NCBI GenBank assembly: GCA_963741325.1
Contig: CAVUHJ010000002.1
Span: forward strand, 59,373 to 123,372
Direction: 5' to 3'
DNA length: 64,000 nucleotides
Source: an uncultured Chloroflexia bacterium
GTDB taxonomy: Bacteria > Chloroflexota > Anaerolineae > Anaerolineales > Villigracilaceae
The notes beneath the pieces are model-generated. The model was not told the DNA's origin and did not search any database. It saw nothing but the letters and a program-made list of their open reading frames with translations. Position numbers and translations under genes: made by a program. Below are positions 6,648-63,416 of the stretch, piece after piece. Within the stretch, counting starts at the first letter, position 1. Every line of letters starts with the position of its first letter.

Positions 6648-7021
6648 TTTTGAACGTGCTTCGGAAGAAAAGCCTCGGGAAGCAATTCCCCCACAGTGAT
6701 CTCCTGCACCAGCCTGCCCTTCCCATCCGCGATCAGGACGATCGTATCCAGTCCGAACTCAGACAGCACCTGGCGGCAGGCGCCGCACGGCGAACCGCCG
6801 TTATCTGTAACGACCGCGATTACATCGAAATCGCGCTCGCCCTCTGAGACCGCTTTGAAGACCGCCACCCGTTCAGCGCAGATACCCGTTGGATAGGCCG
6901 CGTTTTCGATGTTTACGCCCGTGTAGACGCGGCCGCTCTTCGTCCGCAGCGCCGCCCCGACGGGGTAATTCGAATAAGGCGCGTAAGCCTGCCGCCGCGC
7001 CTCGTTCGCAAGCTCGATCAA
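6644..7021 (-). CDS. cdd: Cytidine deaminase
   Basis: 125 aa with ..CAERVAVFKAV.. and ..PCGACRQVL.. zinc-ligand motifs. Confidence 0.85.
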   Translation of the reverse strand: MIELANEARRQAYAPYSNYPVGAALRTKSGRVYTGVNIENAAYPTGICAERVAVFKAVSEGERDFDVIAVVTDNGGSPCGACRQVLSEFGLDTIVLIADGKGRLVQEITVGELLPEAFLPKHVQK

Positions 7022-7090
7022 TTGTTTGTAATCCTCTTTAGATTTGAACCATAAAAGGAGCCCTTCAACGCAAAGCGTTAAGTCTGCGGG

Positions 7091-8457
7091 TCAATTCTTT
7101 TTTGTTTTCCGTTCTAGTTTCTTAATGGCGCGCGCCGGCACGCCCACCACCAGGGTATCGGCGGCTACATCCTTCGTCACCACGGCTCCCGCACCGGTCT
7201 TCGCGCCGTCGCCGATCTTCAGCGGAGCCACAAGCATGGTGTCTGAGCCGATGAAAACATCCGAGCCGATCTCGGTTGGATTCTTCTTCTCGCCGTCGTA
7301 ATTGCAGGTGATCGTCCCGGCGCCGATATTCGTGTTCGCGCCGATGGTGGCATTCCCAATGATATGAAAAATGTCCCACCTTGACTCCCGGCGCCAGGTA
7401 CGAATCTTTAACCTCGCCAAAATTGCCCATGTGGACATGGTTCCCGAGATGCGCGCCTTTGCGCAGCCGGGCGAACGGGCCCATATCGATATCGTCTTCC
7501 AGCACCGCGCCCTCCATCACGGAGGCCAGCACCTTGCACCGGTTCCCGATTTTTGAATCACGGATGATCGTATTGGGTCCCAGGATATTCCCTTCCCCGA
7601 TCACGGTCTTGCCATGGATATAGGTGTTCGGCATGATGACGGTATCTTTGCCGATCGTTACGCCGGCCTCGATATAAGTGGAGGCCGGGTCTGTCATGCT
7701 GACGCCGTTCAACATGTGTGCACGGTTGATGCGCTGGCGCATGGCGGCTTCCGCCTCCGCCAGGTGCACGCGGGTATTGATGCCGATGGTCTCGATCAGG
7801 TCATCGTGTACGACGGCTTGAACGGCCAGATGGTCCTTTACTGCCAGCTCCACGACATCGGTCAGATAATACTCCCCTTTTTGCGGGTTTTTTTGAATGC
7901 GCGGCAGCGCCTCCCACAGCCACTCGGACCTGAAGCAGTACGCGCCTACATTGAGTTCGCGGATGTTAAGTTGCTCGGGCGTGGCGACGTATTCTTCAAC
8001 AATGGCTTCCACATTTCCCTGCGGCCCGCGCACGATCCGTCCAAAGCCGCGCGGATCATCTGACATGACGGTCAGCAGGCTGAAGGGTCCGGGGTTGTCC
8101 TGTTGGGTTTCGACAGAGTCGCTTATAGGTCTCGCCTTGCAGCAGGGGCATATCTGCATATAGGACGATCACATAATCCGATTTCCCTTTGAGCAGGTCC
8201 TTCGCCTGCAAGGCGGCATGCGCCGTTCCCAATTGCGGCTCCTGCACGACGCAGTCGGCGGTATCACCCACAAAAGATTTCACTTGTTCCGCGCCGTGTC
8301 CCACGATCACAACCGGCTTCTCGGTGGATACGGCCTTCACGGCTTCAAGCACATACCAGAGCATGGGTTTTCCACACAGGGGATGCAGCACCTTGGGCAG
8401 ATCCGACTTCATGCGCGTGCCCTGCCCGGCTGCAAGTAAGATGGCGGCAACTTTCAT
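7091..8457 (-). CDS. glmU: Bifunctional GlcNAc-1-P uridyltransferase / GlcN-1-P acetyltransferase; frame broken near 8110 and 7400
   Basis: [26 protein letters not shown].. N-terminus, left-handed beta-helix hexapeptide C-terminus; three ORFs in different frames join seamlessly. Confidence 0.85.
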
Positions 8458-8562
8458 GGTTGGCTCCTATAACAAAACAGGTCTGCCAGCACTTGATCTT
8501 TAGTGCTCGCGCAAGACCTGTTGAGAGAAAAATTCCCGCCTGCGCGGGTCTCCGGATCATAG

Positions 8563-8633
8563 CTGGGGCGCCTGGATTCGAACCAAGATCCACAAATTCA
8601 AAGTCTGGTGTGCTGCCCTTGCACCACGCCCCA
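8563..8633 (-). tRNA. tRNA-Gln (anticodon UUG), no encoded CCA
   Basis: Hand-folded cloverleaf: acceptor UGGGGCG/CGCCCCA with U1-A72 and G73, D stem GUGC/GCAC, loop CUUUGAA, T arm CUUGG-UUCGAAU-CCAGG; one C-U mismatch in the anticodon stem. Confidence 0.7.
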
Positions 8634-8766
8634 AAAAATGAGCGGGCAAATTGTATCACACTGAAATGACACAGTGCAAGCAGTGAGCCTTGCCATATTA
8701 AATCAGATGAAGAGATACCTGCCGCAGCCTATTACGACGCGAAGGATGCTCCTCGCACTGACCCCG

Positions 8767-9830
8767 TTATTTCTTTTGATCGGGCGTCAGGCCCAGCTTG
8801 CGTGCTTCTTCATAGAGATATGACTTCCGAATTGGTGGCTTTATTCGCATTCTGTTCTGCCGCCTGATTCCAGAATGCATCGATCTCTTCTTGTTTGATT
8901 TTCTTTTTGCCGGCCTCGTTGAGCAGGGCTTCCATTTCCGGTGCGGCCGGATGGTCTTCAGATCGCCGGTCTTTCCTTTTTTCTTGGGCGCGGGTGGAGG
9001 ACGGTATGGGCAGCTTAAGCTCCGCGGTTACCCCCATGGATCGCAGCGATTTGCCCACTTCATTTCTGACTTTGAGCATGGCCTCGACGATATCGAAGAT
9101 GTTTTCACGGCTGGCAATTCCGTTACCTGCCAGCAGCAGTGAATAAGAAGGGTCCACCGGTATCAGCAGCAGGTCATGATCGCCGCCCGGGAAAATAAAA
9201 TACTGGTTCAAGGCTTCCTGACGGTTGAACTTCGCAACCTTCAAGCCCGCGCTGAAGATGGCGGTCAGGGCGGAGACCAGGGAGACTTCCCGGCTGCTGT
9301 CATGCAGGTCTCCGGCGCGCGCCACGACCAGCCCCCGGTCACTGATAAGAAATACGGCGCTGGCCTTGGTATCCTGCCTGAAGTTGGCAAGCAGGTCCGA
9401 AACGCGGGAACGCTTCGCTTCCGTTTTTGCATCTGTTACGCTGGGGAATATGGTGCGGACGAGGCCGAGGCTGCGCTCGACCATGTCCAGGAAATCCGCC
9501 AGCGGGATGGGCTTATCGAAGATGGCAACCGCACCGGCATTGAGCATTTCATCGCGGGCTTTGCTGTCGGTCATGCCGGTGATCCAGATGACCTTGACGT
9601 CCGGATGCCTGATGCGCACCTTATGCATGAGCTCGACGCCCGTCATGCCGGGCAGCAGGTAATCGGCAACCAGCAGGTCGATGCGATGCCGGCTGACTTC
9701 CAAGCAGCGCCTCTTCGCCCGAAGGAGCCTCAATGATCTCGAGCCCCTCGTTCTTCAAAGTGTCGAGCGTTGAATGGAGCAGGCGAAGGATATCGCGCTG
9801 GTCATCAACAAGCAAGATCGTGGATGCCAT
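8767..9830 (-). CDS. Response-regulator receiver domain fused to a Roadblock/LC7 (MglB-like) domain; frame broken near 9710 and 8812
   Basis: [36 protein letters not shown] (REC), then ..[31 protein letters not shown].. ; a C-terminal ..[15 protein letters not shown] is recovered in another frame. Confidence 0.55.
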
Positions 9831-10858: not shown

Positions 10859-10878
10859 CAGGGACTCCCGATCTAGGA

Positions 10879-11910
10879 TTAGCGTGCCTTGAGCGGCGCG
10901 CGGTGACCTTCGGCGTTCTGATACAGCCAGCAGCGGACAAGATGCTCGGGTTTGGCTTCGATCAGGTCGGGCTGGATCTCGGTGCAGATCTTCAAACCAT
11001 ATTTGACCCGCGCCGCACAGCGCGACGCAAAACGACAGCCGGCCGGCGGATCGATCAGGTTGGGGACCGAGCCGGGGATCACATCCAGCCGTTCTTTGAT
11101 CTTTCCCAGGATGGGGATCGAACCGATCAGGCCTTGTGTATATGGATGCAGCGGATGATCAAAAAGCTCGGTTGATTCAGCTTGCTCCACGATTTCCCCT
11201 GCATACATCACCGCCACACGCTCGGCAGTTTCGGCGATCACTCCCAGGTCGTGTGTAATCAGGATGACCGAGGTGCCCATCTTCTCGCGCATCTCCAGCA
11301 CCAGGTCGAGGATTTGCGCCTGGATGGTCACATCCAGGGCGGTCGTGGGTTCATCGGCGATCAACAATTCGGGGACGCAGGCCAGCGCCATGGCGATCAT
11401 CACACGCTGGGCCATGCCGCCCGAAAGTTCATGAGGGAAGGCCTGCGCCCGTCGTTCTGCATCGGGGATGCCCACCATCTTAAGCAGGTCCACGGCGCGT
11501 TTCTGGCCGGCTTCCTTGCCGAAATCCTGGTGGATGCTTAACACCTCGGCAATTTGATCTCCCACTCGGAAAACCGGGTTGAGCGCGGTCTGGGGCTGCT
11601 GGAAGATCATGGAGATGCGGTTGCCGCGCACTTTCATCATCTCGGTCTCGGACAATTTGAGCAGGTCCACGCCGTCCAGCAAAACTTCGCCTTCCAGCAC
11701 CTTGCCGGGCTTGGATACCAGCCGCATGATGGAAAGGGAAGCCACACTTTTACCGCACCCCGATTCACCCACCAACCCAAGGATCTCACCGGGATAGACG
11801 ACGAAATCCACGCCATCCACGGCATGGACCACCCCATCTTCAGTGAAGAAGTGTGTCTTGAGGTTTTTCACTTCCAGTAAGGGTTTCTTATCGGTCTTCG
11901 CCACAGCCAA
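10879..11910 (-). CDS. Oligopeptide/dipeptide ABC transporter ATP-binding protein (OppD/DppD type)
   Basis: Intact 343 aa; [18 protein letters not shown]-terminal [11 protein letters not shown]. Confidence 0.85.
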
Positions 11911-12062: not shown

Positions 12063-12145
12063 GAGAGCAAGGCGTATATAATAGGAACGGGGAGACCTAC
12101 GATCATATTTCTGTGGGGACAGCCCGCCTGCGCTGTGCGAACGCC
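12063..12145 (+). promoter_or_regulatory. Conserved promoter/leader module (copy 1 of 2)
   Basis: GAGAGCAAGGCGTATATAATA..GGGGAGAC-N18-GGGGACAG; about 70% identical to 18509-18588; sits upstream of the 12182 gene. Confidence 0.4.
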
Positions 12146-12942: not shown

Positions 12943-13769
12943 ATGCGGCAGCATCCCTTGTTCTTCTTCTTTCTCATGGCGTACGCGTTCTCCTGGATCA
13001 TATTGATCCCCTTCATACTCCAGGAATGGGGCATGCTGCCCAAGGTTTTCACATTCGCCTTCGTGCTCAACCCGTTCGTGGGACCGGCCCTGGCTGCCAT
13101 TATCATGACAGGCATCACCGAAGGCAAAGCAGGCGTGCTGAGCTTGCTGCGCCGCTGCCTTACAGTGGCGCGCCGGCTGGCAGTGGTATCTGTTCATCCT
13201 GCTTGGCATTCCGGCGCTGTTCCTGCTGGGGATCAGTGTGCTGCCGGGAGCGCTGGCAAGTTTTCAAGGTCTTCCGCGTGCCTTCCTGATAGTTTATCTG
13301 GTGAACTTTGTGATCATCTTCTTTTTGGGCGGGCCGCTGGGCGAGGAGATCGGCTGGCGCGGCTTTGCGCTGCCCCGCATGCAACTACGCTATGGCCCGC
13401 TGTGGGGAACCCTGCTCTTGGGCGTCTTGTGGGTCTTCTGGCATCTGCCGCATTTCCTGACGTCGGCTCAACGAGGAGGACCGGGCACCAGCTTCGCCAC
13501 CTTCCTCACAAACTTCCCCATATTCTTTCTGATGGTTATCGCCATGGCCATCATCTTTACGTGGGTCTTCAATCACACCCGGGGGAGCCTGTTCATGGCC
13601 ATCCTGCTGCATGCCAGCATTAATACATTCAGTATCGTGGTCCCGCTCTTCGCTGCCCCCATTGTGACCAGCACCGACCTGCCTATCCTCATCGGTGTTG
13701 CAGCGGCCGCGCTTGCTGATCATCATCCTGACACGCGGTCGGCTGGGCTACCCGGCAAGCCACGAATAG
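12943..13769 (+). CDS. CPBP-family intramembrane glutamic endopeptidase (CAAX protease-like); frame broken near 13165 and 13710
   Basis: Motifs EEIGWRGF, FWHLPHF and HASIN; a natural-looking C-terminus ..LLIIILTRGRLGYPASHE* is recovered in another frame. Confidence 0.75.
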
Positions 13770-13877
13770 CCACTGAGGGCGGTTCGATGCCTACCGTCCC
13801 CTCGATCGATGTGATTTCACCGTGCACATCCTGGCGGGGACACCCGGGACTGCTGCGCGAAGTGCTGGGCCAGCGCT

Positions 13878-13917
13878 ATTTTTGGAGCTGTACAACGAAA
13901 GTGCACAGCTCCAAAAA
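13878..13917. terminator. Bidirectional terminator between convergent genes
   Basis: TTTT-TTGGAGCTGT-13 nt-ACAGCTCCAA-AAA. Confidence 0.6.
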
Positions 13918-13960
13918 CAGTTTCATCTGTTGACGGATAGGCTCCCGGTCGTTGGATCCC

Positions 13961-14729: not shown

Positions 14730-15323
14730 ATGGTTAACGTAGTAACAACCCGCAAGGGGGCCGTAGTCCAGGAGCCCTCCGTCGTAAGCATGTTTTTGAA
14801 CCATCCGCTCGCTGCATGGCTGTGGCTGCCCGTCCGCGTCTGGCTGGGCTGGCAGTGGCTGGTCGCCGGTTGGGAAAAGGTAACCAACCCGGCCTGGATG
14901 CAAAGTGGTGTTGCCCTGAAGGGCTTCCTGGCGGGCGCCGCCAGCGCGGTCAGTGCCAGCGGCAAGCCGGTGATCCACTACACCTGGTACAGCGACTTCC
15001 TTAAACTGCTCGTCTCCAGCGGATCGTATGTCTGGATGGGCAAGCTGGTCAGCGTCGGCGAAACCCTGGTCGGCATTGCGCTGATCCTGGGCGTGTTCAC
15101 CGGTTTTGCGGCCTTCTTCGGCGGCTTTATGAACTTCAATTATCTGATGGCCGGCGCGGTGAGTGTCAACCCCATGTTCCTGGTCCTGTCAGTCACCCTG
15201 CTCCTGGCCTGGAAGATCTCCGGCTACATCGGCCTGGATTACTTCCTGGTGCCTCGCGTCGGTGCGCTGTGGAGCGACCGGAGAGCCAACAAGGCCATGC
15301 GCGAAGGTATTGCCCAGGTCTAG
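14730..15323 (+). CDS. DoxX-family membrane protein
   Basis: AAAGGAG 7 nt before the ATG at 14730; 4 TM, DoxX/DoxD-like sequence. Confidence 0.65.
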   Translation: MVNVVTTRKGAVVQEPSVVSMFLNHPLAAWLWLPVRVWLGWQWLVAGWEKVTNPAWMQSGVALKGFLAGAASAVSASGKPVIHYTWYSDFLKLLVSSGSYVWMGKLVSVGETLVGIALILGVFTGFAAFFGGFMNFNYLMAGAVSVNPMFLVLSVTLLLAWKISGYIGLDYFLVPRVGALWSDRRANKAMREGIAQV

Positions 15324-18508: not shown

Positions 18509-18588
18509 GAGAGCAAAGCGTATATAATAACCACAGGGAGACTTAAGGTCACATCTCGGCGGAGACAGAGCGGGAGGTCTGCAAAACC
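18509..18588 (+). promoter_or_regulatory. Conserved promoter/leader module (copy 2 of 2)
   Basis: GAGAGCAAAGCGTATATAATA..AGGGAGAC-N18-GGAGACAG directly upstream of the 18593 ATG. Confidence 0.4.
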
Positions 18589-29804: not shown

Positions 29805-30150
29805 TCCCTCTGAGAGCGATTCTGGAAGAGATACCGCTTCGCGTCCAACTGGAGAGGCGAGCCTGTTTCATCCCATTTGAGGCGCTAATCGCAACCGAGA
29901 ATAGCGCTTAAGGCAGCAGAGCTCGCCTCGTTCTGTCAGCTTTGCTTGCTCCAACCACAAGCAACGAAATATGTTCATCGGGGCTATGGTCGAGGGCGGG
30001 ATCAACCCGGGCCGTAAACCACCGCGGGGCACTTACATACTGGTGCGACGATGTTCAAGTCGGCATTCCCGGATTTATAAACGAAGCCGGGCTTTCCACC
30101 CGCCGAGCGGGGCCAACCAGCAAATGCATAAACAGCAGCAGTATAACGGT
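29805..30150 (-). pseudogene. 5'-truncated copy of the lysK 3' end with its own stop and downstream flank (middle copy)
   Basis: Encodes ..[38 protein letters not shown].. versus authentic ..[38 protein letters not shown]..; about 80% nt identity by eye over about 150 nt. Confidence 0.65.
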
Positions 30151-30162: not shown

Positions 30163-30191
30163 TTGACAGACATAGTACTTTGTTGTATATT
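30163..30191 (+). promoter_or_regulatory. Sigma-70-like promoter placed for a leaderless PadR mRNA
   Basis: TTGACA-17 nt-TATATT, then 6 nt to the ATG at 30198. Confidence 0.45.
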
Positions 30192-30197
30192 GTACCT

Positions 30198-30539
30198 ATG
30201 GATAAGTCAATGCCCCCCAACAAGATCTCTTCCGACCTGCTGCGTGGCCATACCGATACGATGATTTTACGGCTCTTATCTGAAGCGGATCGTTATGGCT
30301 ACGAAATCGTCAAGCTGATTGCCGAGTGCTCGGGCGGCGAGTATGAATTAAAGGAAGCCACCATGTACTCCTGCGTCCGGCGGCTTGAGGCGGACGGTGA
30401 TATCGAGTGGTACTGGGGCGATGAATCGCAGGGCGGACGGCGTAAGTATTTTCGGATTACCAAAAAAGGTAGGGCCACTTACGCCAGCAACAAAGGCAAT
30501 TGGGAGTATGCAAAGCGCGTGCTCGATAAATTATTGTAA
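30198..30539 (+). CDS. PadR-family transcriptional regulator
   Basis: ..[39 protein letters not shown].. winged helix. Confidence 0.8.
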
Positions 30540-30553
30540 GGAGATGTGATGGT

Positions 30554-31420
30554 ATGAACGAGAAATTAAACCAATATTTGAACGGCGTTTTTGCGCCTTA
30601 CGATGGAGTAAAAAGCGTCGCCGAACTAAAGGCTGACCTGCTCTCCGATTTACAGGAGCGGTTCAATGAACTCAAAGCCGAAGGCAAGGACGATGAAACC
30701 GCTTTTGAGATGACCATTGACAGCATTGGCGACATCGAACAAACGGTACAGGAGGTTGCTAACCTCTCCCGCTCGCTGGAGCGACAGTTGTTGATCAACT
30801 TCAGCGCGAGCGACTTGCCAAAGAGCGACTTCGCGGGCGTTACCGCACATAAAGGAAAATTTGAAGCCAGCGCGCTGCGCGGCTCCGACTTTTCGGGCGC
30901 GGACTTGACCGGCAGCTCGTTTAAGGCCAGCGATGTGCGCGAAGTCAATTTTGACGGTGCAAATCTGACAGACTGCAACTTTTACGCTCTTGACCTTACG
31001 GATGCGAGCTTCAACAAAACCATTCTTGTACGCACCGAATTCAGCACGTCAGATCTGACCCGGGCAAAATTCACCGATATAAAACTGATCGACGTAAAGC
31101 TGACCATGACCGACCTTAGAAAGACGATCTTTGAAAACTGCATCTTTAACGGCGTGGACTTTAAACAATGTGACCTGCGAGGGATGTACCTGGACGGACT
31201 GACCTTTATTGGCGTCAAGTTTGGCGATGCGGCGCTGAGCGAAATTACGTTTAAGGGTGCGACACTTAAAAATGTGTCCTTTACACCGCCGTTTTCTCTG
31301 ACCAAGAAATACTACAATGCCATCAAGACCATTAGGTTTGAGGGCGCGACGATGGATAAGCTGACCTACGCCTCGCTCAAAGGCCTGGGAGCCGATTTGT
31401 CAAAGGTTACCGTTATCTAA
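30554..31420 (+). CDS. Pentapeptide-repeat protein with a DUF1700-like N-terminal helical domain
   Basis: Intact 288 aa; long run of A(D/N)LxG-type pentapeptides (..FSGADLTGSSFKASDVREVNFDGANLTDCNF..). Confidence 0.7.
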   Translation: MNEKLNQYLNGVFAPYDGVKSVAELKADLLSDLQERFNELKAEGKDDETAFEMTIDSIGDIEQTVQEVANLSRSLERQLLINFSASDLPKSDFAGVTAHKGKFEASALRGSDFSGADLTGSSFKASDVREVNFDGANLTDCNFYALDLTDASFNKTILVRTEFSTSDLTRAKFTDIKLIDVKLTMTDLRKTIFENCIFNGVDFKQCDLRGMYLDGLTFIGVKFGDAALSEITFKGATLKNVSFTPPFSLTKKYYNAIKTIRFEGATMDKLTYASLKGLGADLSKVTVI

Positions 31421-31429
31421 GGATTAACA

Positions 31430-32195
31430 ATGATGCAAAACTTATCAATTCAAAGTAAAGGACTGCAAAAGTCCTACCAGCAGCTTCATGTTCTAAAGGG
31501 CGTGGATTTCGAGGTGGAAAAAGGCAGTATTTTCGCCCTGCTCGGCTCCAACGGCGCGGGCAAGACAACGATTATCAAAATCCTCTCCACGCTGCTGAAA
31601 CCGGACGGCGGGACCGCCTTCGTAAACGGATTCGAGGTTGTGTCAAAGGACGACGATGTGCGGCAGTCGATCAGCCTGACCGGGCAATTCGCCGCCGTAG
31701 ATGAGATTTTGACCGGTCGGGAAAATCTGGTCATGATTGCCAGGCTGCGGCACCTCCATGATCCGCGTCAGGTTGCCGACGATTTGCTGAAACGCTTCGG
31801 CCTGACCGATGCCGCCGACCGCAGGGTGTCCACTTATTCGGGCGGTATGCGCCGCAGGCTCGACATCGCCATGAGCCTTGTCGGGAAACCGCAGGTCATT
31901 TTCCTCGACGAGCCGACCAACGGGCTTGACCCCGAGGCGCGCATCGAGGTTTGGAAGACTGTCAAAGAGCTTGCTAATAACGGCACGACGGTATTCCTGA
32001 CCACGCAGTATTTGGACGAGGCCGAGCAGCTTGCCGATCAGAATTGCCATTCTGCATGAGGGCAGGATTATCGCCAACGGCACACTCGCGGAGCTGAAAA
32101 AACTGTTCCCGCCTGCAAAGGTGGAATATATTGAAAAACAGCCGACATTGGAGGAGATATTCCTCGCAATCATCGGCAAAAAGGAGGAAAAGTAA
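31430..32195 (+). CDS. ABC transporter ATP-binding protein (DrrA/ABC-2 type); frame broken near 32040
   Basis: GSNGAGKTT, YSGGMRRRL, IFLDEPTNGLD; the C-terminus ..RIAILHEGRIIANGTLAELKK.. is recovered in the next frame. Confidence 0.8.
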
Positions 32196-32963
32196 ATGGA
32201 AACGATAAAGAAACACTTTTTCAGCGATATGGGCGTGATGCTTGGACGTTCCATGCGCCATATTTTCCGCAGCATGGACACCATCATCACGGTCACCATC
32301 ACGCCGATCGCGATGATGCTGCTGTTCGTCTATGTGTTAGGCGGCGCAATCCAAACCGGTACGGATAACTATGTGAATTACCTGCTGCCCGGCATCCTGC
32401 TGATTGCGATTGCAAGCGGCATCGCCTATACGGCTTACCGTCTGTTTATGGATATGCAAAGCGGCATCTTCGAACGGTTCCACTCCATGCCGATTGCGCG
32501 TTCCACCGTGCTGTGGGGGCACGTGCTGACCTCGCTGGTATCCAACGCGATTTCGGTTGTCGTCATCATTCTCGTAGCGCTCATTATGGGCTTCCGCTCG
32601 TCGGCAGGGGTACTGTCATGGCTTGCCGTAGCCGGTATCCTCGCGCTGTTTACGCTGGCCCTGACATGGATCGCGGCGATTGCCGGACTGTCCGCAAAAT
32701 CGGTGGACGGTGCAGGCGCCTTTGCCTATCCGATTATCTTCCTGCCCTTTATCAGCTCGGCGTTCGTGCCGACCGCATCGATGCCGCCGGTCGTTCGCGC
32801 CTTTGCCGAAAACCAGCCGGTGACCTCGATCGTGGACGCCATCCGTGCGTTGTTGTCAAGCCAGCCGGTTGGTAATGATATATGGATTGCTCTTGCGTGG
32901 TGTGTCGGGATTATGCTCGTGGCTTATATCTTTGCGATGAGGGCGTATAAAAAGCGGGTGTAA
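32196..32963 (+). CDS. ABC-2 type transporter permease
   Basis: Intact 255 aa, 6 TM; its ATG abuts the ATPase stop (TAAATG). Confidence 0.75.
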   Translation: METIKKHFFSDMGVMLGRSMRHIFRSMDTIITVTITPIAMMLLFVYVLGGAIQTGTDNYVNYLLPGILLIAIASGIAYTAYRLFMDMQSGIFERFHSMPIARSTVLWGHVLTSLVSNAISVVVIILVALIMGFRSSAGVLSWLAVAGILALFTLALTWIAAIAGLSAKSVDGAGAFAYPIIFLPFISSAFVPTASMPPVVRAFAENQPVTSIVDAIRALLSSQPVGNDIWIALAWCVGIMLVAYIFAMRAYKKRV

Positions 32964-34137
32964 AGAAAGAACAATTTTTTCTATATTGAACATCAGTGAA
33001 GGCTGCTGCATCGGCTCTACAGGGATCACAGTAGAAACAGTGGAAACAGCAGCCGAAATGCAGTCAATTGCTCCAACATTTGAGATCGAATCATCTGGCC
33101 GAGCCAGCCTCAGCGCTTCCGCCAGCACCGCAACAGCTTTCTCGTATTCTTCCAGTGAAATATGTTCATCGGGCGTATGGTCGAGAGCGGAATCGCCGGG
33201 GCCGTAAACCACCGCGGGGCACTTCCATACCGGCGCGACCAGGTTCAAGTCGGCGGTGCCGGACTTATACACGAAGCTGGGCGTCCCACCTTCTGAGCGA
33301 ATGGCGCTGAGCAGGGCGCGCACCAGCGGCGTATTCTTCTCACAGGCCCAGGCAGGGACGGCATAGCCGCGCCGTTCTACTACTCGCACCGGCCGCGATC
33401 TCGCTCAACTTGGTATACCAATCCTCCGGCGATACATCCAGAGGCAAACGGGTGCCGATGTGCAGCTTTGCCCATTGCTCGAAGCCGTCCGCACCGGACT
33501 CGAGGCCTCGCAGCGTGGGCAGGATCTTATCAAAGGCCCGGGGTTTATTCCCATTGAATGAATCCGCGTAGGCTTTGACCGCCAGCCACAATTCAACTGC
33601 GTCCTCGCAAGCCGTCTGCTCGCCGCTGGAGGAATGGGCCTGCGCGCGCTTGACCGACAACCTGCGCCCAGGCGCTGCCTTTATACCCAAGCGAGATCCT
33701 GTCCCAGCGGTTGGGTTCACCCACGATGGCAAGGTCCGGCTTGTAGCGTGAAACCACATAACGCGCCCCATCCGAATCACGTTCTTCTTCCACCGCACCG
33801 ATCACGACCATCTGCCACCCGCCACCAAGCCGACTTGCGCGACCGCATCTACAAAACACGCCAGCGGGCCTTTGGCATCCACGGAGCCGCGACCATACAG
33901 GTTCCCCTCTTCCACGCGGACAGGGATCTCTCCCGGCACCGTGTCTATGTGCCCGAGCAATACGATCTGCCTGGGGCCCGTTCCCATCAGGCCCACTGCG
34001 TTACCGGCTTCATCCACAAATGCATCCGAGTAATGCAGCGCCTTCATGCGCTCCACCAGCCAGTCAGCCGCATCGCGCTCGCTCCCCGAAGGACTGAAGT
34101 GCTCCACGAGGCCGGTCAGCGTGGCGGCATCATTCAT
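32856..34137 (-). CDS. lysK: [LysW]-lysine hydrolase / acetyl-ornithine deacetylase family (M20); frame broken at least 3 times; the last about 45 codons look like read-through
   Basis: [67 protein letters not shown]; operon position after lysJ (8-nt overlap). Confidence 0.75.
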
Positions 34138-35318
34138 CTTTGAGGTCCGTGCTGAGCACATCGCGCAGCGTGTCCACGAGATGGTCGAGCTGTTCATAGG
34201 TAATGACCAGCGGCGGCAGGAGGCGGATCACCGTCAGACCGGCGTTCAAGGCCAGGATATGCCGCGCCTGCAGTTCTTTGATATACGGTTGAACCTTTTG
34301 TTTCAGCTCGATGCCGACCATCAATCCCAAGCCCGCGCACTTCGCGGATCAGCGGCGAGTTGATCTCGGATAATTTGTCCATGAGGTAGGCGCCTTTTTC
34401 GGCGGCCTGGCCGGGCAGGTCCTCTTCTTCGATGACTTCCAGGGCAGCCACCGCCGCGGCGCAGGAAAGCGGGTTGCCGCCGAAGGTGGACCCATGCACA
34501 CCCGGGACGAGGTTCTTGATCTTCGGGCCGATCAAGACCGCACCGATGGGCACCCCGCCCGCCAGCGACTTGGCGCAGCACAGCATGTCCGGCGTAACGC
34601 CGGTATGCTGCACCGCAAACAATTTCCCGGTGCGGCCAAACCCGCTCTGGACTTCATCCACGATCAGCAGCGCCTCATGCGCATCACAGATGCGGCGGGC
34701 CGCCTCGATATACGCTTTATCCGCCGGGTACACTCCGCCTTCGCCCTGCACCACTTCGACGATAAACGCGGCGGTCTCATCGGTAACGGCCTTCTCCAGC
34801 GCGGCGATATTGTTATACGGCACGTGGCTGAAGCCGGGGACAAGCGGCTCGAAGCCTTCACGATATTTTTTGTTATAGGTGGCCGAAAGCGAACCCAGCG
34901 TGCGACCGTGGAAGGCGCGCATGGTCGCAACGATACCGGCGCGCCCGGTGGAGATGCGCGCAAATTTGATGGCAGCTTCGATCAACTCGGTGCCGGAGTT
35001 GCAGAAGAAGACCCGGTCCAGCCCCGGCACGAGCGTCCCCATTTTTTGGACTAGCGCCGCGCGTTTATCATTGTAAAAACTCTCGAACAGGGTGACCAGC
35101 CTAGTGGCCTGTTCCGCCAGCGCGGCAGCTACCTTGGGATGCGCATGTCCCAGGTTCGCCACGCCGTGCCCGGAATTACAATCCAGGTATTCGACCCCGT
35201 CAATATCCCACAGCAAGGCTCCCTGCCCGCGCACGAAGATGATGGGCTGCTTGGTATACAGCCCCGAGGCGAAGTGCGACTCGGCCTCGATGATTTCAGT
35301 TGCCGTTAAAGTTTTCAT
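34130..35318 (-). CDS. lysJ: [LysW]-aminoadipate semialdehyde / acetylornithine aminotransferase; frame broken near 34325
   Basis: Class III PLP transaminase motifs (..[27 protein letters not shown]..). Confidence 0.8.
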
Positions 35319-55385: not shown

Positions 55386-55890
55386 TCATAATACCGGGTG
55401 TTCAACCGCTGTTTGTTCGCCGCTCTGCTCCGACTTTTTCTTTACCACATTCGTCAGGGCGCTCAGGCCGCGTGCAAGCGCGCTCAAATCATCATCGCTC
55501 AGGTTAACCAGCCAGCGCTGCCACTGTTTCTCGCGCTCGCTTGCGACGTCCTTCACCGATCTCTGCGCCCTGCTCGCTGAGAGTCACCACCGTCTGGCGT
55601 CGATCGGTCTCATGCTCCGTGCGGACCACGAGGCCGCGCGCCACCAGTTGCTGCACCAGGATACTGGCCGTGGGGTTCCCAACGCCCAGCATGCGCGCCA
55701 GCTGGCTGACGGTCATGGCCTTGTTCGCCGCCAGGATGATCACAGCCCTGGCCTGCGCAAACGTCAGTTCGAGCATCAGCCAGTGCGAGACCGCATTGAA
55801 CTGCATGATCACGAACAAATCCATATAGGCCTGCACGATCGCGCCGACGAGTTGGGGCCGGCTTTGCGCCGTATTTTTCACGGGTTTCAT
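55386..55890 (-). CDS. MarR-family transcriptional regulator; frame broken near 55570
   Basis: ..LTFAQARAVIILAANKAMTVSQLARMLGVGNPTASILVQQLVARGLVVR..; natural C-terminus recovered in the next frame; ATGA overlap with the upstream gene. Confidence 0.75.
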
Positions 55891-58458
55891 TTCGGCTCCT
55901 CCGCTTTCAGGACCAGGCCGCGCGAGCCATCCACCCTGATCCATTGTCCATCTTGCAGCTGCCGCGTGCCGTTTACCGTGCCCATCACCGCCGGTACGCC
56001 GTATTCACGGGCCACGATCGCGGCATGCGAAGCAGAGCCTCCGGTATCCACGACCACCGCCGCCGCATGCTGGAAAAGCGGCGTCCAGGCCGGGTTGGTG
56101 ACCGGGGCCACCAGCACATCCCCTTGCCGCAATTTTCCGAACTCGGAAGCATCCAGTATGATCCGCACCGGGCCGCTTGCCATGCCCGGGCTGCCCGATG
56201 AACCGCTTAAAAGCACATCCTGCTCCCTGCCCTTCCGCGGAGCGAGGGCCAGCAAGCGCGGGTCCACCATCGGCGTATCCCCCAGCGATTTGCGCTTGGC
56301 TTTGCGGCGTGAAACAAGCTCTCTGATCCGGTCAATGGTATGGGAAGGCAGCGGCCACGTGTCGCCTACCGATTTAAGCTCTTCCAGCCGCAAATGAAAT
56401 ACATCCGCTGCCGTCTCGAGCGCGCCGGCCTTTTCCAGGCGCTGACCGAGTTCGAGGGCCATGTGCCGGATGGGCGGCTGGGATAACGTCAAATAGAAAT
56501 GGGTGTCCTCGCGGATTTGAAAAAGTGCACGCGCATTGCCCAGCGACTTCAGGAACAGGTTGCGGAGGGCCTTCGTGCCCAGCATCGAATGTGCCAGTAA
56601 CTCGTCCCGTGCCCGCTGCCAGGCTCCGTTATTTTGCTCCTGCTTTGGCCCCACGCTCACCAGCACTTTCAAAATCCCGAGCACGATCTCGGGTTGATCC
56701 TTCCAGGCCGGTTCTGAAATCGTGAGCACCGTCTCGCGGTGGCCGTATCGATCCAGGAAATTATCGAGGTCCTTCAGAAAAGCCTGCCCTGCCGGTGAGC
56801 CCTTTAGGACCGATCCTAATTCGCGCACCTCATTCCGGGCAAATGCCTCTCTCAGCCCCGCGTCAAACCGGGCCTGCCTGGCCAACGCCTCCAGCGCCAG
56901 GTTGGTTTCCGTCGTCTTGGTCTGTACGCCCGAGACCAACTCGCTAAAGGCTAGCCCCGCGGCCCGCCAGCTTAAGCAGCATCCATAACAGTCCCAATCC
57001 CAGGAGCGCCTGGGGCAGATACAGCTCGCGGACCTTCATGCCGCGCGGGATCAGGCCCAGCGCCTCATGCAGCGCCTCGATATTCTGCGCCCAGGTCAGC
57101 GATCCCGGGTTCAGCCCATCGAGTTCGTTCACCCCGGTTATATACTCACGCAATAACGGGTCGGCTTCCCAGCGTGACGGGTCATAATGGCGCGTCCGCC
57201 ACAGGGCAAGCAGGGGATTGATGATCACCAGCGGCGACGGATAGAATTTGGGTGGTTGGAAGCGCACCACCACGCCCTCCTCCTCAAACAAGGCCTCGTC
57301 CGGGTTCGGCGCATCCTTGCCGATCATGGCGGTCAGCAGATTGCCGATACTGCGTTCCACTGCGCCTGTAAAAGTCGTCACGTCCAGCGGATAGGGACGC
57401 ACCGGCCACATCTCCGCCAGCATGGGGACGATCAGCCGCATCGCTCCGGTGACTTTCAGAGGCCTCGGCAAAGCAGTGATCGGCCGCGCCTGCAGGATAA
57501 AGAACTTCCCGGTTGTACGGGTTTCCTTGATCCATGCCCATTCGATATCCTGGTATTTGCGGTAAAACGTCTCGATCTTGACCCCCAACTGCGCAAGCTT
57601 TTTGATCTCTGATTTGGGTAGGGCCGCCTCGCCCACCGCTGAATGATCCGACGTGACTTGCTCGGTACCGCCCCCGGCTTTGGCGCGCACGATCACCTCC
57701 CGCCTGCCGGAAGTCTGTTCCTTGATGCGCTTTGTGCGCTTCTCGACCACGTAATGATCCGGCGTGACCGCGCCGCTCACCACGGCTTCGCCCAGCCCCG
57801 GGTTCGCGTCGATCACCACCACGTTCAGCAGGCCGCTGACCGGGTCCGCGGTGAACATCACACCGGCTGCATCGGCCGGGACCATGCGCTGCACCACCAC
57901 CGCCAGTTTAACGGACGCCTGGTCTACATTTTGGTGAGCACGGTAGAGGATTGCGCGCTCCGACCACAGCGACGCCCAACAACCGCGCACCGCTTCGAGC
58001 AGCGCGGGTTCGCCGATAACATTCAGGAAGGTTTCCTGTTGTCCGGCGAAGGCGGCTTCAGGCAGGTCTTCCGCGGTCGCACTCGAACGGACCGCGACCC
58101 CGTCACCGCCCAGCCGCTGATAAGCCTTCATGACCTCATCGGTTATCTCTGGCGGAAGCGGGACATGCTCGAATAGGTCGCGGATGTCCTGGCTGATCTT
58201 TGCCAGCGCTTCGGGCTGGTCGGGTTGGAGGGCAGCGACGAAAGCCTCCAGGCGGGAACGCAGGTCCTTGTCCTGCAAAAGCAGGTCATAAGCGGCTGTG
58301 GTAATGACAAAGCCGGCCGGTATGTCGAACCCTCCGCGTGATAACTCGCCCAGGTTCGCGCCTTTTCCACCTGCCAGCAGCAGATCGTTGTGCCCAAAAC
58401 GGGAAAGCGGCGCGACGAGAGGGCGGCGAAGGCGATCGGATAGATTTGCAAGAGACAT
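55887..58458 (-). CDS. PEP-utilising enzyme with rifampin-phosphotransferase-like architecture (PPDK_N ATP-grasp + central domain + swivel His domain); frame broken near 56940
   Basis: ..LLAGGKGANLGEL.., ..VRSSATAEDLPEAAFAGQQETFLNV.., C-terminal ..VVDTGGSASHAAIVAREYGVPAV..; about 855 aa total. Confidence 0.7.
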
Positions 58459-58569
58459 GCTTCACTCCGAAGATTTAATATGAGATGGAACGACTTGCTT
58501 ATATTGATTTATATTACCAAAATGGTTTGATTTTGTCAAACTATTTTATTATGAGAATATAAATTGATA

Positions 58570-58685
58570 GCCTCGGCAAGGAAAATGAAAACGGTCGTAA
58601 AGTATTGAAATAAGATACTTGCTTATAACGAATAGGCTTCGGCGTGAGGTTCAACCACCGAAGTCTGTTATCTTAGAAAAAACAA
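58570..58685 (+). repeat. Relic copy of the last about 18 codons, stop and terminator hairpin of the DUF4332-type gene
   Basis: GCCTCGGCAAGGAAAATGAAAACGGTCGTAAAGTATTGAAATAAGATACTTGC versus 54985-55037 (about 87% by eye), then hairpin AATAGGCTTCGGCG..CACCGAAGTCTGTT. Confidence 0.7.
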
Positions 58686-58882
58686 TTATCATGAAGATGA
58701 GTAGATGTGGTCGGGATTATAGGAATGGTGTAAAGATGGGGTTAAATAAGGGGAGGGCTAGGGGCGGGCTCCAGCGTGCATTTCATATCACACCCGATTA
58801 TTGTGATGAACATACGCCAGCTCTTATTGCTAATTATCGGCCCCTGCGCACTATGTTAGCCCGTTCATGTCAACTCGAGTTG

Positions 58883-59578
58883 CTATTTTTCGATAAAGAT
58901 TCGGTCAAACAATGGGCTGGAGATATCTGCTCCAGAATAACCATCATATATTTCATAATATAACTGAGATGAACTAATTACACCAGGAATTGTTCCAGAA
59001 AGTTTTATAACATCTCCTTCTATATCTACTTCGATTATTCCATCAGAAATTTTCTTCTCTGACGCGCCGTTTAATTCACTAACGCTAACTTGCATTCCTT
59101 GTTCGATCGGCATGGCTTTTGAAGTACCACTAGACTTAAAATGCGCTGCCCATAAACAATAATCTGCCCCGGCTAACCATCCTAGCGATGCTCCTGTATT
59201 CTTGTCATTATCAGTGTCAATGCAAATTTTCCACATATACTCAATACTACCTGTGACCACGCCGCTTTCTTTATCAAAAGTTAATTCTGTAGGCACATCT
59301 TTCAAATAGAAAATAGCAGTTACTGAATCGTTTTTCACATCTATTCTAACGTCCATAGGGTCAAATACTGGATTGCTCATGTCACCGTAAGGAGCGGGAA
59401 AAGTAGATAATGGAGCAGGTGTTCCAGTAGGAATTAAAGTTGCTGTAGAAAGAGGGGTATTTGTAGGCGCAATTGTAGAAGTGGGCAGTGTAGTTCGCGC
59501 AAGAGTGGCCGTTGCTGGAACACCACATGCAGAGAGAATCAGGACCAATGCTGCAATAGTCAGTATGTATTTATTCAT
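58883..59578 (-). CDS. Lipoprotein, function unknown, low GC (about 38%)
   Basis: MNKYILTIAALVLILSAC lipobox; Thr/Pro linker; beta-rich domain. Confidence 0.5.
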   Translation of the reverse strand: MNKYILTIAALVLILSACGVPATATLARTTLPTSTIAPTNTPLSTATLIPTGTPAPLSTFPAPYGDMSNPVFDPMDVRIDVKNDSVTAIFYLKDVPTELTFDKESGVVTGSIEYMWKICIDTDNDKNTGASLGWLAGADYCLWAAHFKSSGTSKAMPIEQGMQVSVSELNGASEKKISDGIIEVDIEGDVIKLSGTIPGVISSSQLYYEIYDGYSGADISSPLFDRIFIEK

Positions 59579-59848
59579 TCTTTTAATCTCCTTGAGGGCT
59601 AGCTGCTTTAGCAACCGTCTACTGCGCGGTTTGGTAGACCACTTTTGAACTTAATCTTACATCATAATGGTAGCTTATAGCTGTATCTCGAAAGACGCCT
59701 GGCATAAGCCTGGATTTGATCCCCGCTCTCAATCCCAGTTCAAGGAAGTCTGTTGCGAGCCGGCTCGGTCACGTGAGAGTGATCGAACCACGCAGCACCA
59801 GGGCCTTGTGATGATCCGACCTGTTCCTGGCACGGTATAATGTTTTTT

Positions 59849-60108
59849 GAGTCGAAAACAAACACACATCCCAAGGGTCATCCGGGAGGCAGAGTGGAGA
59901 GTTCTTTTCCAACCTCGGGCCCGGTTTAATTTCCGGGGCAGCCGATGATGACCCTTCCGGGATCTCAACCTACTCTGTGGCCGGGGCAACTTTCGGCTAT
60001 CTGCCTCTATGGATGGCGCTCTTTTCTTATCCATTGACAGCTGCATTGCAATTGATGTGCGCGGTTTTGGGCATGGGTAACCGGGCGGGGCCTGGCGGGC
60101 GTGATACG
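59849..60108 (+). pseudogene. 3'-truncated copy of the 5' end of the Nramp gene (about 85 codons)
   Basis: Encodes ..GPGLISGAADDDPSGISTYSVAGATFGYLPLWMALFSYPLTAALQLMCA..; about 88% nt identity by eye to 61187-61448. Confidence 0.7.
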
Positions 60109-60275
60109 ACTTCTTGCTGACGATCCTACAGAGCCGCCGCGCGAGAGTCTGTAAAGCGACCCGTTTACAACTTTAGAGAATCTGTTATGCTTGAGACGCG
60201 CCTAACTACCTCGCTGCGCAATTGCCGCGAGCATAGGGCACTGGTTCCATTATGCATGAGTATTGAGGTGGTGGG

Positions 60276-60918
60276 ATGAGATTGCCAAAGCATGTCGGCG
60301 TGATTCCAGATGGAAATCGAAGATGGGCGCAAGCCAGACGTCTGGCCAAAGGCAAAGGATACGCGAACGGGTTGGACTGGCTTTGACCTTCCTTAAGCTG
60401 GCCCAAACAGCCGGGATCAAGGAGCTGACGGTCTACGGGTTTACCATGGAGAACAACAGGAGACCACCGGTACAGAGAAAAGCGTTTACAGACGCCTGCA
60501 TTCGTGCAGTGGATCTTCTTTCCAGAGAGGATGCGGAGCTGTTGGTAGTTGGGAATACGGATTCACGCTTCTTCCCGAAAGAATTGCTTCCTTACACTTC
60601 CGAGCGAAGGACCTTCGGCGATGGAGGCATAAAGGTTAATTTTCTGGTGAACTATGGATGGGAATGGGACTTGGACAAGTTGAAAACGGCCGATCCCACG
60701 CGCACAAATATCATGGATCACGTGCAATCTTCTAGATTTCCAGGATAGATCTCATTATTCGCTGGGGAGGCAGGAGCAGGTTGAGCGGTTTTCTGCCCGT
60801 GCAGTCTATTTACGCCGACATTTATGTTGTGGATGAATTTTGGCCGGATTTCGAACCGGAGCATTTTTTCCGGGCTCTGAAGTGGTACACAAAACAGGAT
60901 ATTACGCTTGGCGGCTAG
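60276..60918 (+). CDS. cis-prenyltransferase (undecaprenyl-diphosphate synthase family), short paralogue; frame broken near 60385 and 60745
   Basis: [18 protein letters not shown].. and ..[35 protein letters not shown].. Confidence 0.7.
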
Positions 60919-61168
60919 GGCTATCGTTGAGGCACAGGGCCCTACAGAGCTATATATATTCATGTGTATTATACGAATGTCAAAAGAACCGATTTTCGCC
61001 CGATTGAGAGCTTACGAAGGCATGAGGACATACCGCGAACGTGCTCGGCTGTGTATGTTGGTATTTCGTTCTACGGAAGCTAAGGAACATGATCGTGGAT
61101 TTTGACAGGTGAGGTCAAACGGTATCATTAAAGCGTAAACGCGGCTGGCTGTAAATTTCAAATGACAT

Positions 61169-62476
61169 ATGGATAAATCAAACACCGAGTTGAAAACAAA
61201 CACGACATCCCAAGCGGCATCCGGGAGGAAGGGTTGGAGAGTTCTTTTCCAACCTCGGGCCCGGTTTAATTACCGGCGCCGCCGATGATGACCCTTCCGG
61301 GATCTCCACCTACTCCGTCGCCGGGGCAGCCTTCGGCTATCTGCCGCTGTGGATGGCGCTCTTTTCTTTTCCATTAACGGCTGCACTGCAATTGATGTGC
61401 GCACGTCTCGGCCTGGTGACCGGGCGAGGCCTGGCGGGCGTCATACGCCGTTATTATCCGCGCTGGGTGCTGTGGGGAGCTTGCTCGCTGTTGATCGTGG
61501 CGAATGTGTTCAACATCGGCGCCGACCTGGGCGGGATGGCGGCAGCCACAGCCCTGGTCACGGGGGTCAAGTCATTTTACTGGACGCCCATTTTTACGGC
61601 GGTGATCATTCTGGTGCTGATTTTCTCCTCCTACCGGCTCATCGCAAAGATCTTCAAATGGCTGACGCTCGTGCTCTTTTCTTATATTCTGACGGCTTTT
61701 CTGGCTCAACCCGATTGGGGCGCGGTCCTGCATGCCACCTTTATTCCGCAGGTTTTATGGTCCAGCGCGTTCCTTGCGGCTTTTGTCGGGATCCTCGGCA
61801 CGACCATCAGCCCCTATCTTTTCTTCTGGCAGGCCTCCCAGGAAGTCGATGAAGAGAGAGCACAGGGCAAGACGACGGTCGCCAGACGCAAAGGCGCAAC
61901 GGATGAGGAATTGCGTATTGCCCGGACCGACGTTCTGGTCGGGATGTTCTTTTCCAACCTGGTGATGTACTTCATCATCCTGACGACTGCCGCCACATTA
62001 CATGCTCACGGCAGTACCGATATCCAGACCGCACAACAAGCGGCGCTGGCTTTGCGTCCACTGGCCGGCCCGTGGGCTTATCTTCTCTTCACGATCGGCA
62101 TCATCGGTACGGGCATGCTGGCCGTTCCGGTCCTGGCAGGCTCCGCCGCCTACGCCATCACCGAAGCGGAGAAATGGCGTGGAAGCCTGGAATCCCGGCC
62201 CAATGTAGGCGAAGCGATTTTATGCCGTCGTGGCGGTTTCGATGCTCCTGGGGCTGGCTCTTGGATTTTGTCGGGTTCAACGCGGTCAGGATGCTTTTTT
62301 ATTCGGCGGTTCTCAACGGTGTTCTGGCCCCGCCCCTGATCGTCCTGGTCACGCTGCTGACGAGCAACCCCAAAGTCATGGGCAAGCGTGTCAGTCCGCC
62401 TCTCCTGCGTTATTTGGGTTGGGCCACGGCAGCCATCATGGCCATCGCAGCCATTGGAATGTTCTTAACGCTGTAA
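61169..62476 (+). CDS. mntH: Nramp-family divalent metal transporter; frame broken near 61204 and 62220
   Basis: ..GPGLITGAADDDPSGISTYSVAGAAFGY.. DPGN-type motif region; 11-12 TM. Confidence 0.7.
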
Positions 62477-62613: not shown

Positions 62614-63306
62614 TCAAAAATCCTTCCGCCCGTTCTTTCTCAGCCACTTGTTGTACTCCTTGTAATCCGGCAGTATCTTTTCCACCTTCTTCCAAAATCG
62701 TTTCGAGTGATTATGGACGGCAGTGTGTACCAGTTCATGGATGATCACAGAGTCAACCACATCGATCGGGGTCAGGATCAAGCGCCATGAGAAGCTAAGG
62801 TTACCGGTCGGGCTGCACGAGCCCCAGCGTGTCCGGGCCGAGCTGATGCGGATCTTCCCATATTGAAAATCGTATCTTGCGGCGAACAGGGCTGCGTGCT
62901 CGCCTATGATCTGCCGGGCCTGCTTCCGATACCAATCCTGAAATGCCTGTCCGGCATTCCCCTGCGCCCCCTCTGCAAGTTTGAAATTACCATCCAGCCA
63001 CAAAGGCTTCTTCTGGCCTTTTACTATTTCGAGCGCATAGGGCTGACCCAGGTAAAGGAAGGTCTCACCCGGGATGTATTGTTTGGCCGGGGAGGTAACC
63101 ACGACACGCGCCTGCGCCTGCTTTTTCTCGATCCACAATGCGTGGCTGTCCACAAACTCACGGATCGTTTTCTCGGGAGTCCGGAGAGGCGTGCGGACGA
63201 TCAACGAACCGTCGTTCTCGACGATCAACGTCAGAGTCCTGCGTTTACTGCGAATGAGCTGGTTGATCTCAACCGGCATTTTTATATCTTCGTTTCTGCT
63301 GTACAT
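62614..63306 (-). CDS. YgjP-like (DUF45/M48-type) metal-dependent hydrolase
   Basis: Intact 230 aa; ..RTRWGSCSPTGNLSFSWRLILTPIDVVDSVIIHELVHTAVHNHSKRFW.. HExxH. Confidence 0.7.
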   Translation of the reverse strand: MYSRNEDIKMPVEINQLIRSKRRTLTLIVENDGSLIVRTPLRTPEKTIREFVDSHALWIEKKQAQARVVVTSPAKQYIPGETFLYLGQPYALEIVKGQKKPLWLDGNFKLAEGAQGNAGQAFQDWYRKQARQIIGEHAALFAARYDFQYGKIRISSARTRWGSCSPTGNLSFSWRLILTPIDVVDSVIIHELVHTAVHNHSKRFWKKVEKILPDYKEYNKWLRKNGRKDF

Positions 63307-63314: not shown

Positions 63315-63416
63315 GTCATTGCGAGCCGCCGTTCTTGTTTTTGGCGGCGTGGCAATCTCAGAATGCATTCAAGTACGAGATTGCTTCGTCGGGAAGAGCA
63401 CCCTTCTCGCAATGAC
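63315..63416. repeat. GTCATTGCGAG..CTCGCAATGAC palindromic repeat (copy R3)
   Basis: GTCATTGCGAGCCGCCGTTCTTGTTTTTGGCGGCGTGGCAATC..GAGATTGCTTCGTCGGG..CTCGCAATGAC. Confidence 0.8.

Follow-up and report, generated by a model that had tools for sequence, protein, structure and literature searches.

Why should the beginning of one transporter gene stand twice on the same strand, with the gene of an unrelated enzyme in between? This question is raised by a locus in the DNA of an uncultured Chloroflexia bacterium (Anaerolineae; Anaerolineales; Villigracilaceae), contig CAVUHJ010000002.1 of assembly GCA_963741325.1. The analysed stretch, positions 59,373 to 123,372 of that contig, comprises 64,000 nucleotides (nt) and is referred to as the window; coordinates are those of the window unless a related contig is named. 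The transporter belongs to the Nramp family, the duplicated part is the 5′ end of its gene, and the gene between the copies encodes a cis-prenyltransferase. An earlier, sequence-only reading of the window had described this gene as cargo bracketed by the duplicated gene ends. The locus is most likely an ordinary rearrangement scar, left by a known kind of event, in which a dead 5′ fragment of an Nramp gene lies upstream of a pre-existing block of prenyltransferase and Nramp genes. In the explanation favoured here, which we regard as about evenly poised between right and wrong, the window is a hybrid of two chromosome types and carries the scar of their recombination, not an element.

The locus consists of the following parts, given with the basis of each assignment; L085, L087 and similar labels denote related contigs.

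59779 to 59848, plus strand: segment U1, 70 nt, 88.6% identical to L087 and ending in GGTATAATGTTTTTT (alignment).
59849 to 60108, plus strand: copy 1, orphan 5′ fragment of an Nramp-family gene, about 86 codons (BLASTN; Pfam Nramp profile positions 1–49).
60109 to 60154, plus strand: remnant of a GT2-like glycosyltransferase gene, its last ~15 codons and the stop codon TAA at 60152–60154 (L085 homology, indel map).
60157 to 60275, plus strand: leader of the prenyltransferase gene, kept in L085 and in L001/L002 (alignment; promoter scan).
60276 to 60918, plus strand: cis-prenyltransferase gene of the MM_0014 type, 214 codons (three-frame translation, Pfam, homologues).
60919 to 61186, plus strand: spacer, the native upstream region of the Nramp gene, 44% G+C (alignment to L085, L088, L092 and L087).
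61187 to 61447, plus strand: copy 2, the 5′ end of the full Nramp-family gene (BLASTN; 95.8% identity to the L087 orthologue over 212 nt).
61190 to 62476, plus strand: Nramp-family transporter gene resembling the NRMT group, 427 codons from TTG (translation, Pfam, homologues).

The two copies align by BLASTN with 88.2% identity over 262 columns, including 28 mismatches and three single-base gaps (E = 4e-92), and are separated by 1078 nt of DNA. This confirms the direct repeat of about 88% over about 260 nt that had been noticed before; a third copy was not found within the window by the same method. Each copy starts three nt 5′ of the TTG that serves as the start codon of the homologues (proteins of 427 amino acids), and each spans about 86 codons, including the conserved GEFFSNLGPGLITGAADDDPSG...GLAGVIR region, which corresponds to positions 1–49 of the Pfam Nramp profile. 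The statement that only the second copy continues into a full gene also holds, as the gene beginning with copy 2 covers profile positions 1–353 of 357 when its frameshifts are bridged. Copy 1 had been allowed the chance of being the start of a second, intact Nramp gene disguised by sequence errors. It is not: position 60108 is followed by the tail of the GT2-like gene and then by the prenyltransferase gene, and no further Nramp pieces are detected after copy 1 by tblastn.

Judged from its substitutions, copy 1 is a dead orphan fragment that is decaying. Its former start codon (59852–59854) reads TCG in place of TTG; compared with copy 2, one nt is missing near 59893 and one extra nt is present near 60074. 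Over the 212 nt between the codons for GEFF and GVIR, copy 2 and L087 share 95.8% of their positions, and the identities of copy 1 are 89.2% to copy 2, 89.6% to L087 and 87.5% to L085. Copy 1 is the outlier, with 13 private substitutions, compared with three in copy 2 and two in L087. Five of these 13 fall at codon positions 1–2 and five are non-synonymous; the changes T>S, F>Y and R>V affect residues that are invariant across five other sequences, and there is no clear bias from G/C to A/T among the 13. The three private substitutions of copy 2 lie without exception at third codon positions. Since 15 of the 23 differences between the copies are also found at third positions, copy 1 descends from a once-functional allele that was later partly freed from selection.

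The origin of this layout is illuminated by two relatives. The first, L087, is a 231-kilobase (kb) contig that is syntenic with the window on both flanks: on the left with a MarR gene and an Rph-like gene (window 55530–58564, 87.5% identity), and on the right with a YgjP-like gene (83%) and a URO-D gene (86%). In L087, U1 is followed by a leader of ~100 nt and then by an uninterrupted Nramp gene, and the prenyltransferase gene is absent. The arrangement of the window is derived, because a relative with the same flanks has this simple order, for which the sequence-only reading had proposed a comparison of relatives. In the window, U1 runs directly into copy 1, whose first three bases (GAG) precede the former start codon.

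The second relative, L085, is a short-read contig of 1.6 kb that aligns to window positions 60107–61411 with 87.8% identity over 1311 nt. It contains, contiguously, the C-terminus of a GT2-like protein, an intact prenyltransferase gene of 214 codons, the spacer and the start of an Nramp gene. Positions 1–342 of L085 encode the C-terminus of a membrane protein (...EFRRTPKY..., then two hydrophobic segments), which is 33% identical to the tail of a GT2 glycosyltransferase in L083, an open reading frame (ORF) of 498 amino acids. The homology between L085 and the window begins at 60107, exactly at the end of copy 1, and therefore window positions 60109–60154 represent a remnant of the GT2-like gene. 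The spacer is kept throughout in L085, from 61077 in L088, from 61106 in L092 and from 61139 in L087.

These comparisons change the reading of the locus. The prenyltransferase gene is not free cargo between duplicated Nramp ends, since L085 has prenyltransferase, spacer and Nramp side by side as a single block, with the GT2-like gene before them. The odd part is the orphan Nramp fragment, and the left junction, at 60108/60109, falls within the final ~15 codons of the GT2-like gene. The earlier anatomy was right in placing a gene and a spacer between the copies; it missed the insertions and deletions in both genes, the GT2 tail at 60109–60154 and the nature of the spacer as the native upstream region of the Nramp gene. 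Thus the earlier observation is confirmed and its interpretation partly supported.

In the favoured explanation, the starting point is that two chromosome types with ~88–90% nt identity exist among close relatives. Type A, seen in L087, has the order Rph-like gene, variable island, U1, leader of ~100 nt, Nramp and YgjP; type B, seen in L085, has the order GT2-like gene, MM_0014-type prenyltransferase, spacer and Nramp. The window would correspond to type A up to about codon 86 of the Nramp gene and to type B from the GT2 tail onward. One DNA end would have been joined by homology, either within or downstream of the Nramp gene or at a distance on the left side, in the Rph region. The other end would have been joined illegitimately, so that Nramp codon ~86 became fused to the final ~15 codons of the GT2-like gene. 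Such a process would be homology-facilitated illegitimate recombination or an equivalent one-sided event, and it would have stranded the promoter-proximal 260-nt fragment of the Nramp gene that is now copy 1. A later deletion of ~95 nt, flanked by GA, may then have removed the leader of copy 1; with the start codon lost, decay would be under way.

Homology-facilitated illegitimate recombination has reportedly been observed in experiments with Acinetobacter and Streptococcus pneumoniae, in work of 2002 attributed to de Vries and Wackernagel and to Prudhomme et al. The locus resembles this process in several respects: one end is anchored in a conserved gene, the other joint falls within 0–3 nt of microhomology, foreign neighbouring genes are imported and no recombinase gene is involved. 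The junction between copy 1 and the GT2 tail has ~2 nt (CG) of microhomology, within the expected range, and the two putative parental arrangements are present in L087 and L085. There are also differences. The footprint is deduced here from comparative genomics of an uncultured Anaerolineae bacterium, and its joint lies inside the homologue of the anchor gene, so that a 260-nt gene end was duplicated instead of recipient DNA being deleted.

A deletion between paralogues would account for the same junction in a single event. According to this alternative, which we find rather unlikely, an ancestor carried Nramp(A), possibly other genes, the GT2-like gene, the prenyltransferase gene and Nramp(B), and copy 1 is what remained once a single deletion had removed the DNA between codon ~86 of Nramp(A) and the final 15 codons of the GT2-like gene. 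The concentration of 15 of the 23 differences at third positions is what would be expected of two once-functional genes, and by distance copy 1 branches outside the pair of copy 2 and L087. However, no tandem Nramp pair, and no Nramp gene 5′ of a GT2-like gene, occurs among ~170 related loci. Between its matching flanks, the syntenic L087 carries a single Nramp gene, and the deletion of the leader would still be required.

A displaced 5′ gene end, followed by cargo and by the gene in restored form, also calls to mind an integrating element that supplies a replacement gene end. The elements of the SXT/R391 group integrate into the 5′ end of prfC. The window shares with them a displaced gene 5′ end and a substitute 5′ end with its promoter beside the gene body, but this match is superficial. 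The insert is just 1.08 kb long and has neither an integrase nor an attachment core, and relatives show that its substitute 5′ end is the upstream block native to the gene. No integrase or transposase gene is present between or beside the repeats, where the prenyltransferase gene and the GT2 tail are the only coding sequences of the insert. The supposed cargo begins inside the tail of another gene, and no identical core is found at the repeat ends, the identity being 88% throughout. A site-specific element is therefore scarcely credible here. The locus has no match in plasmid and phage collections.

Two further structures in which a gene fragment, other genes and a full gene follow one another were observed. 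In the window, an orphan lysK fragment at 29965–30110 (145 nt, profile positions 263–314) is ~85% identical to 33155–33300 inside the full lysK gene (minus strand). Together they bracket ~3 kb, with the genes for a PadR regulator, a pentapeptide-repeat protein and a DrrA/DrrB-type ABC exporter at 30180–32963. In L087, the 3′ end of the Nramp gene (the last ~340 nt and 80 nt downstream) is duplicated at 98% identity, at 10869–11288 and 13526–13945 of that contig, and the duplication encloses 2.2 kb with an ORF of 277 amino acids and an MmyB-like HTH_31/MLTR_LBD regulator.

It could be proposed that the Nramp 5′ structure of the window, the lysK 3′ region and the Nramp 3′ end of L087 are the signature of a recurrent, undescribed gene-capture process in these Anaerolineae. 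Such a process would insert blocks of neighbouring genes beside conserved genes and duplicate 150–420 nt of a gene end, without a recognisable recombinase; we consider it improbable. In both Nramp cases the orphan fragment adjoins the conserved native flank, as a one-sided recombination model predicts.

The 98% identity of the L087 duplication is what a recent duplication would produce, and it lends some colour to yet another mechanism, namely a circular intermediate that integrated in the Campbell manner, or a tandem duplication with subsequent loss. In this scenario a segment reaching from the GT2 tail to Nramp codon 86 would have been circularised or duplicated in a type-B genome and would then have recombined through the homology of the Nramp 5′ end; the junction between codon 86 and the GT2 tail is exactly the joint predicted for a circle or tandem duplication of that segment. 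The copies in the window, in contrast, are 12% diverged, with copy 1 as the outlier. Copy 1 is preceded by U1 and not by the spacer, so that extra events would be needed, and there is no evidence of a circular form. We place little confidence in this scenario.

The reading of the locus depends also on the quality of its sequence. Compared with intact homologues, the prenyltransferase gene is broken by single-base deletions at ~60377 and ~60734, and the transporter gene by single-base insertions at 61204, ~62205 and ~62260. Genes elsewhere in the window are affected in the same way. The lysK gene for [LysW]-lysine hydrolase (33090–34197) is divided into four ORF pieces that match profile positions 5–107, 109–164, 131–253 and 259–343, lysJ (34194–35318) loses its frame near the 3′ end, drrA (31430–32059) breaks off at profile position 193 of 302, and splits occur at 56944–56952 in the Rph-like gene and at ~63906 in the URO-D gene. 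Similar single-base damage is carried by L087. Two ORF clusters at 11.8–13.9 kb and 51.5–54.4 kb gave almost no Pfam matches from which the density of frameshifts could be estimated, and lysK and lysJ were used instead. For the five frameshifts in the prenyltransferase gene and the Nramp gene, errors in the consensus of a noisy assembly are the most likely cause, because the core genes lysK and lysJ are broken likewise while the proteins stay highly conserved. The many broken ORFs of the window are best read as assembly errors and not as pseudogenes.

The opposite view, that both genes are real pseudogenes in a locus decaying as a whole, is unlikely but deserves to be weighed. It draws on the five frameshifts within 1.95 kb, which lie mostly outside homopolymer runs and are denser than those of the immediate flanks. 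Against it, the bridged proteins are full length and 91–94% identical to intact homologues, without stops or larger lesions, the core biosynthetic genes lysK and lysJ are equally broken, and the private substitutions of copy 2 are only three, all at third codon positions.

The same errors invite the suspicion that the layout was created by the assembler. In an error-prone long-read metagenome assembly, two co-occurring strains could have been joined end to end as a false, haplotypic duplication, one strain contributing U1 and the Nramp gene and the other the GT2-like gene, the prenyltransferase gene and a second Nramp gene. The window and L087 are full of single-base insertions and deletions, whose density peaks precisely here; contigs of this kind are also the source of all three structures with a fragment, cargo and a full gene, and both parental arrangements are present as separate public sequences. 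An artefact is nevertheless rather unlikely. There is no shared sequence at 60108/60109 that might have misled an assembler, and the copies are 88% identical, not near-identical. The private substitutions, the insertion and deletion and the missing leader of copy 1 are absent from every sampled functional allele, and a decaying fragment fits them better.

Several observations weigh against a recombination scar with two otherwise sound genes. The insertions and deletions are ~5 times denser in the prenyltransferase and Nramp genes than in the flanks, with five in 1.95 kb and two in the 3.85 kb of the immediate flanks (binomial p ~0.05), and this raised density might also reflect genuine decay or a consensus with poor support. 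A second event is required for the loss of the ~95-nt leader before copy 1. The informative sites among copy 1, copy 2 and L087, in an alignment read by eye, are mosaic, with ~4, 3 and 1–2 sites supporting each of the possible groupings, and therefore donor and recipient cannot be assigned. No identity breakpoint appears along the Nramp gene when its sliding identity to seven relatives is followed. Lastly, no independent assembly with the exact arrangement of the window was found; the homologues of the lipoprotein-like gene of the left flank (L172, L173) stand in unrelated contexts and offer no independent copy of it.

The prenyltransferase and the transporter would both be expected to function and to be expressed, because the former keeps its own leader and the latter its own upstream region. 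The leader, ~120 nt long, combines a promoter-like site at 60164–60191 (TTTACA, 16 nt, TG-TATGCT) with the predicted ribosome-binding site GAGGTGGTGGG. The spacer contains TTGACA (61102–61107) within the palindrome TTGAC-N7-GTCAA (61102–61118), which is also present in L085 and L088 and which is possibly an operator or promoter of the Nramp gene. A further ATG lies upstream of the transporter gene at 61169. U1 includes TATAAT at 59835–59840, a putative promoter element, and was not flagged by a consensus promoter scan. In an Rfam scan of 58.4–64 kb, no riboswitch that would explain the repeat or the leader was found, and the only match was to DUF805b, below threshold at 17.7 bits (cut-off 35.6).

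The gene between the copies had been described as a paralogue of the undecaprenyl-diphosphate synthase (UppS) family. Its membership of the Pfam family is clear, as the bridged translation of 214 amino acids matches PF01255 over positions 1–216 of 219 with 138.7 bits (gathering cut-off 27), but it is probably not a UppS paralogue in the strict sense. The comparisons with NCBIfam equivalog models and with solved structures were made with the intact homologue P0001, which also has 214 amino acids and is 92% identical to the bridged protein of the window. P0001 reaches TIGR00055 only marginally (113.3 bits, cut-off 109.55) and stays far under the cut-offs of all NF0114xx and NF007596 UppS equivalogs, for example with 97 bits vs 418. 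Its closest solved structure is MM_0014 (7CAQ; E = 3.3e-85 over residues 2–214), followed by UPPS of E. coli (9e-29). On this basis, the enzyme of the window is predicted to be of the MM_0014 type and not a typical UppS.

MM_0014 of Methanosarcina mazei is a versatile cis-prenyltransferase that performs both C- and O-prenylation and accepts isopentenyl diphosphate (IPP), dimethylallyl diphosphate (DMAPP) or alcohols (PMC8131916). The two proteins are of similar length, 224 amino acids in MM_0014 (PDB 7CAQ) and 214 in P0001, and have the motifs DGNRRWA and IRWGGR.RLSG.LPVQ in common. They differ in that the enzyme of the window belongs to a bacterial host of the Chloroflexota, and in that the gene of the window type is solitary, with neighbours that change from relative to relative. 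Together with its leader, it stands in a different context in each relative other than L085; among ~170 related loci, only L085 and the window have it next to an Nramp gene. A conserved partner gene was not found, since the downstream ORFs of 260–300 amino acids in L001, L003, L004 and L086 are unrelated to one another. The window holds no second uppS, Nramp or GT2 gene that tblastn could detect, with E. coli UppS serving only as a probe.

The transporter, previously named as Nramp/mntH, belongs to the Nramp family and is not a canonical MntH. With its three frameshifts bridged, it matches PF01566 over positions 1–353 of 357 with 309.9 bits and is 91–94% identical to intact homologues of the same length. 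It scores 79 bits with NF037982 (cut-off 50) and fails the MntH model NF001923, which requires 430 bits and is matched with 151. In helix 1 (DPSG), Gly occupies the Asn position, and in helix 6 (TTISPY), Ser occupies the Met position. The best solved relative is EleNRMT (7QIA, E = 6.5e-54), compared with ~1e-27 for MntH structures, and the binding-site residues aligned to 7QIA are Asp/Gly/Thr/Ser.

EleNRMT of Eggerthella lenta is an Nramp-related transporter of Mg2+ and Mn2+ that is not proton-coupled, and the binding site of NRMTs has the signature Asp/Gly/Thr/Ala, in contrast to Asp/Asn/Ala/Met in classical Nramps (PMC8806188). The protein of the window has Asp/Gly/Thr as well and lacks the canonical Met; it differs from the NRMTs in having Ser where they carry Ala, and its overall identity to EleNRMT is moderate. 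These features indicate an NRMT-like transporter and not a canonical MntH, and for this reason its substrate may be Mg2+, rather than only Mn2+ or Fe2+.

The surroundings of the locus include two more genes.

58883 to 59578, minus strand: lipoprotein-like gene of the variable left flank, 231 amino acids with the lipobox LSAC (ORF).
62614 to 63306, minus strand: YgjP-like metallopeptidase gene of the conserved right flank, syntenic with L087 (Pfam, synteny).

The lipoprotein-like gene has no Pfam or NCBIfam match and lies in a stretch of 42% G+C (58565–59778) without a counterpart in L087, where no homology to window positions 58678–59778 was found. The region between the Rph-like gene and U1 is thus a variable island: the window has the lipoprotein-like gene in 58565–59778, and L087 has 6.7 kb at 3034–9753 with a gene of the AbiEii family. 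Between the YgjP-like and URO-D genes, L087 repeats a 21-nt unit, ATAGCGAAGCGTATCCCGTGG, at least eight times in tandem at 14792–15022. This array is absent from the matching site of the window, which has an apparent inverted pair, GTCATTGCGAG...CTCGCAATGAC, at approximately 63317–63407. Farther away, a direct repeat of 60 nt with 78% identity occurs at 12063–12122 and 18509–18568 and contains TATATAAT, and an imperfect palindrome of 61 nt, with arms 4 nt apart, is located within 2198–2323.

For the biology of these bacteria, the locus identifies the region upstream of the NRMT-like transporter gene as a hot spot in which the neighbour differs in every relative examined. The short prenyltransferase gene of the MM_0014 type travels with its leader as one unit from context to context. 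The finding is of modest interest unless the recurrence of such structures reflects a specific process; if the three parallel structures are true, they would provide rare traces, left in nature, of gene import by one-sided (illegitimate) recombination in an uncultured lineage of soil or peat.

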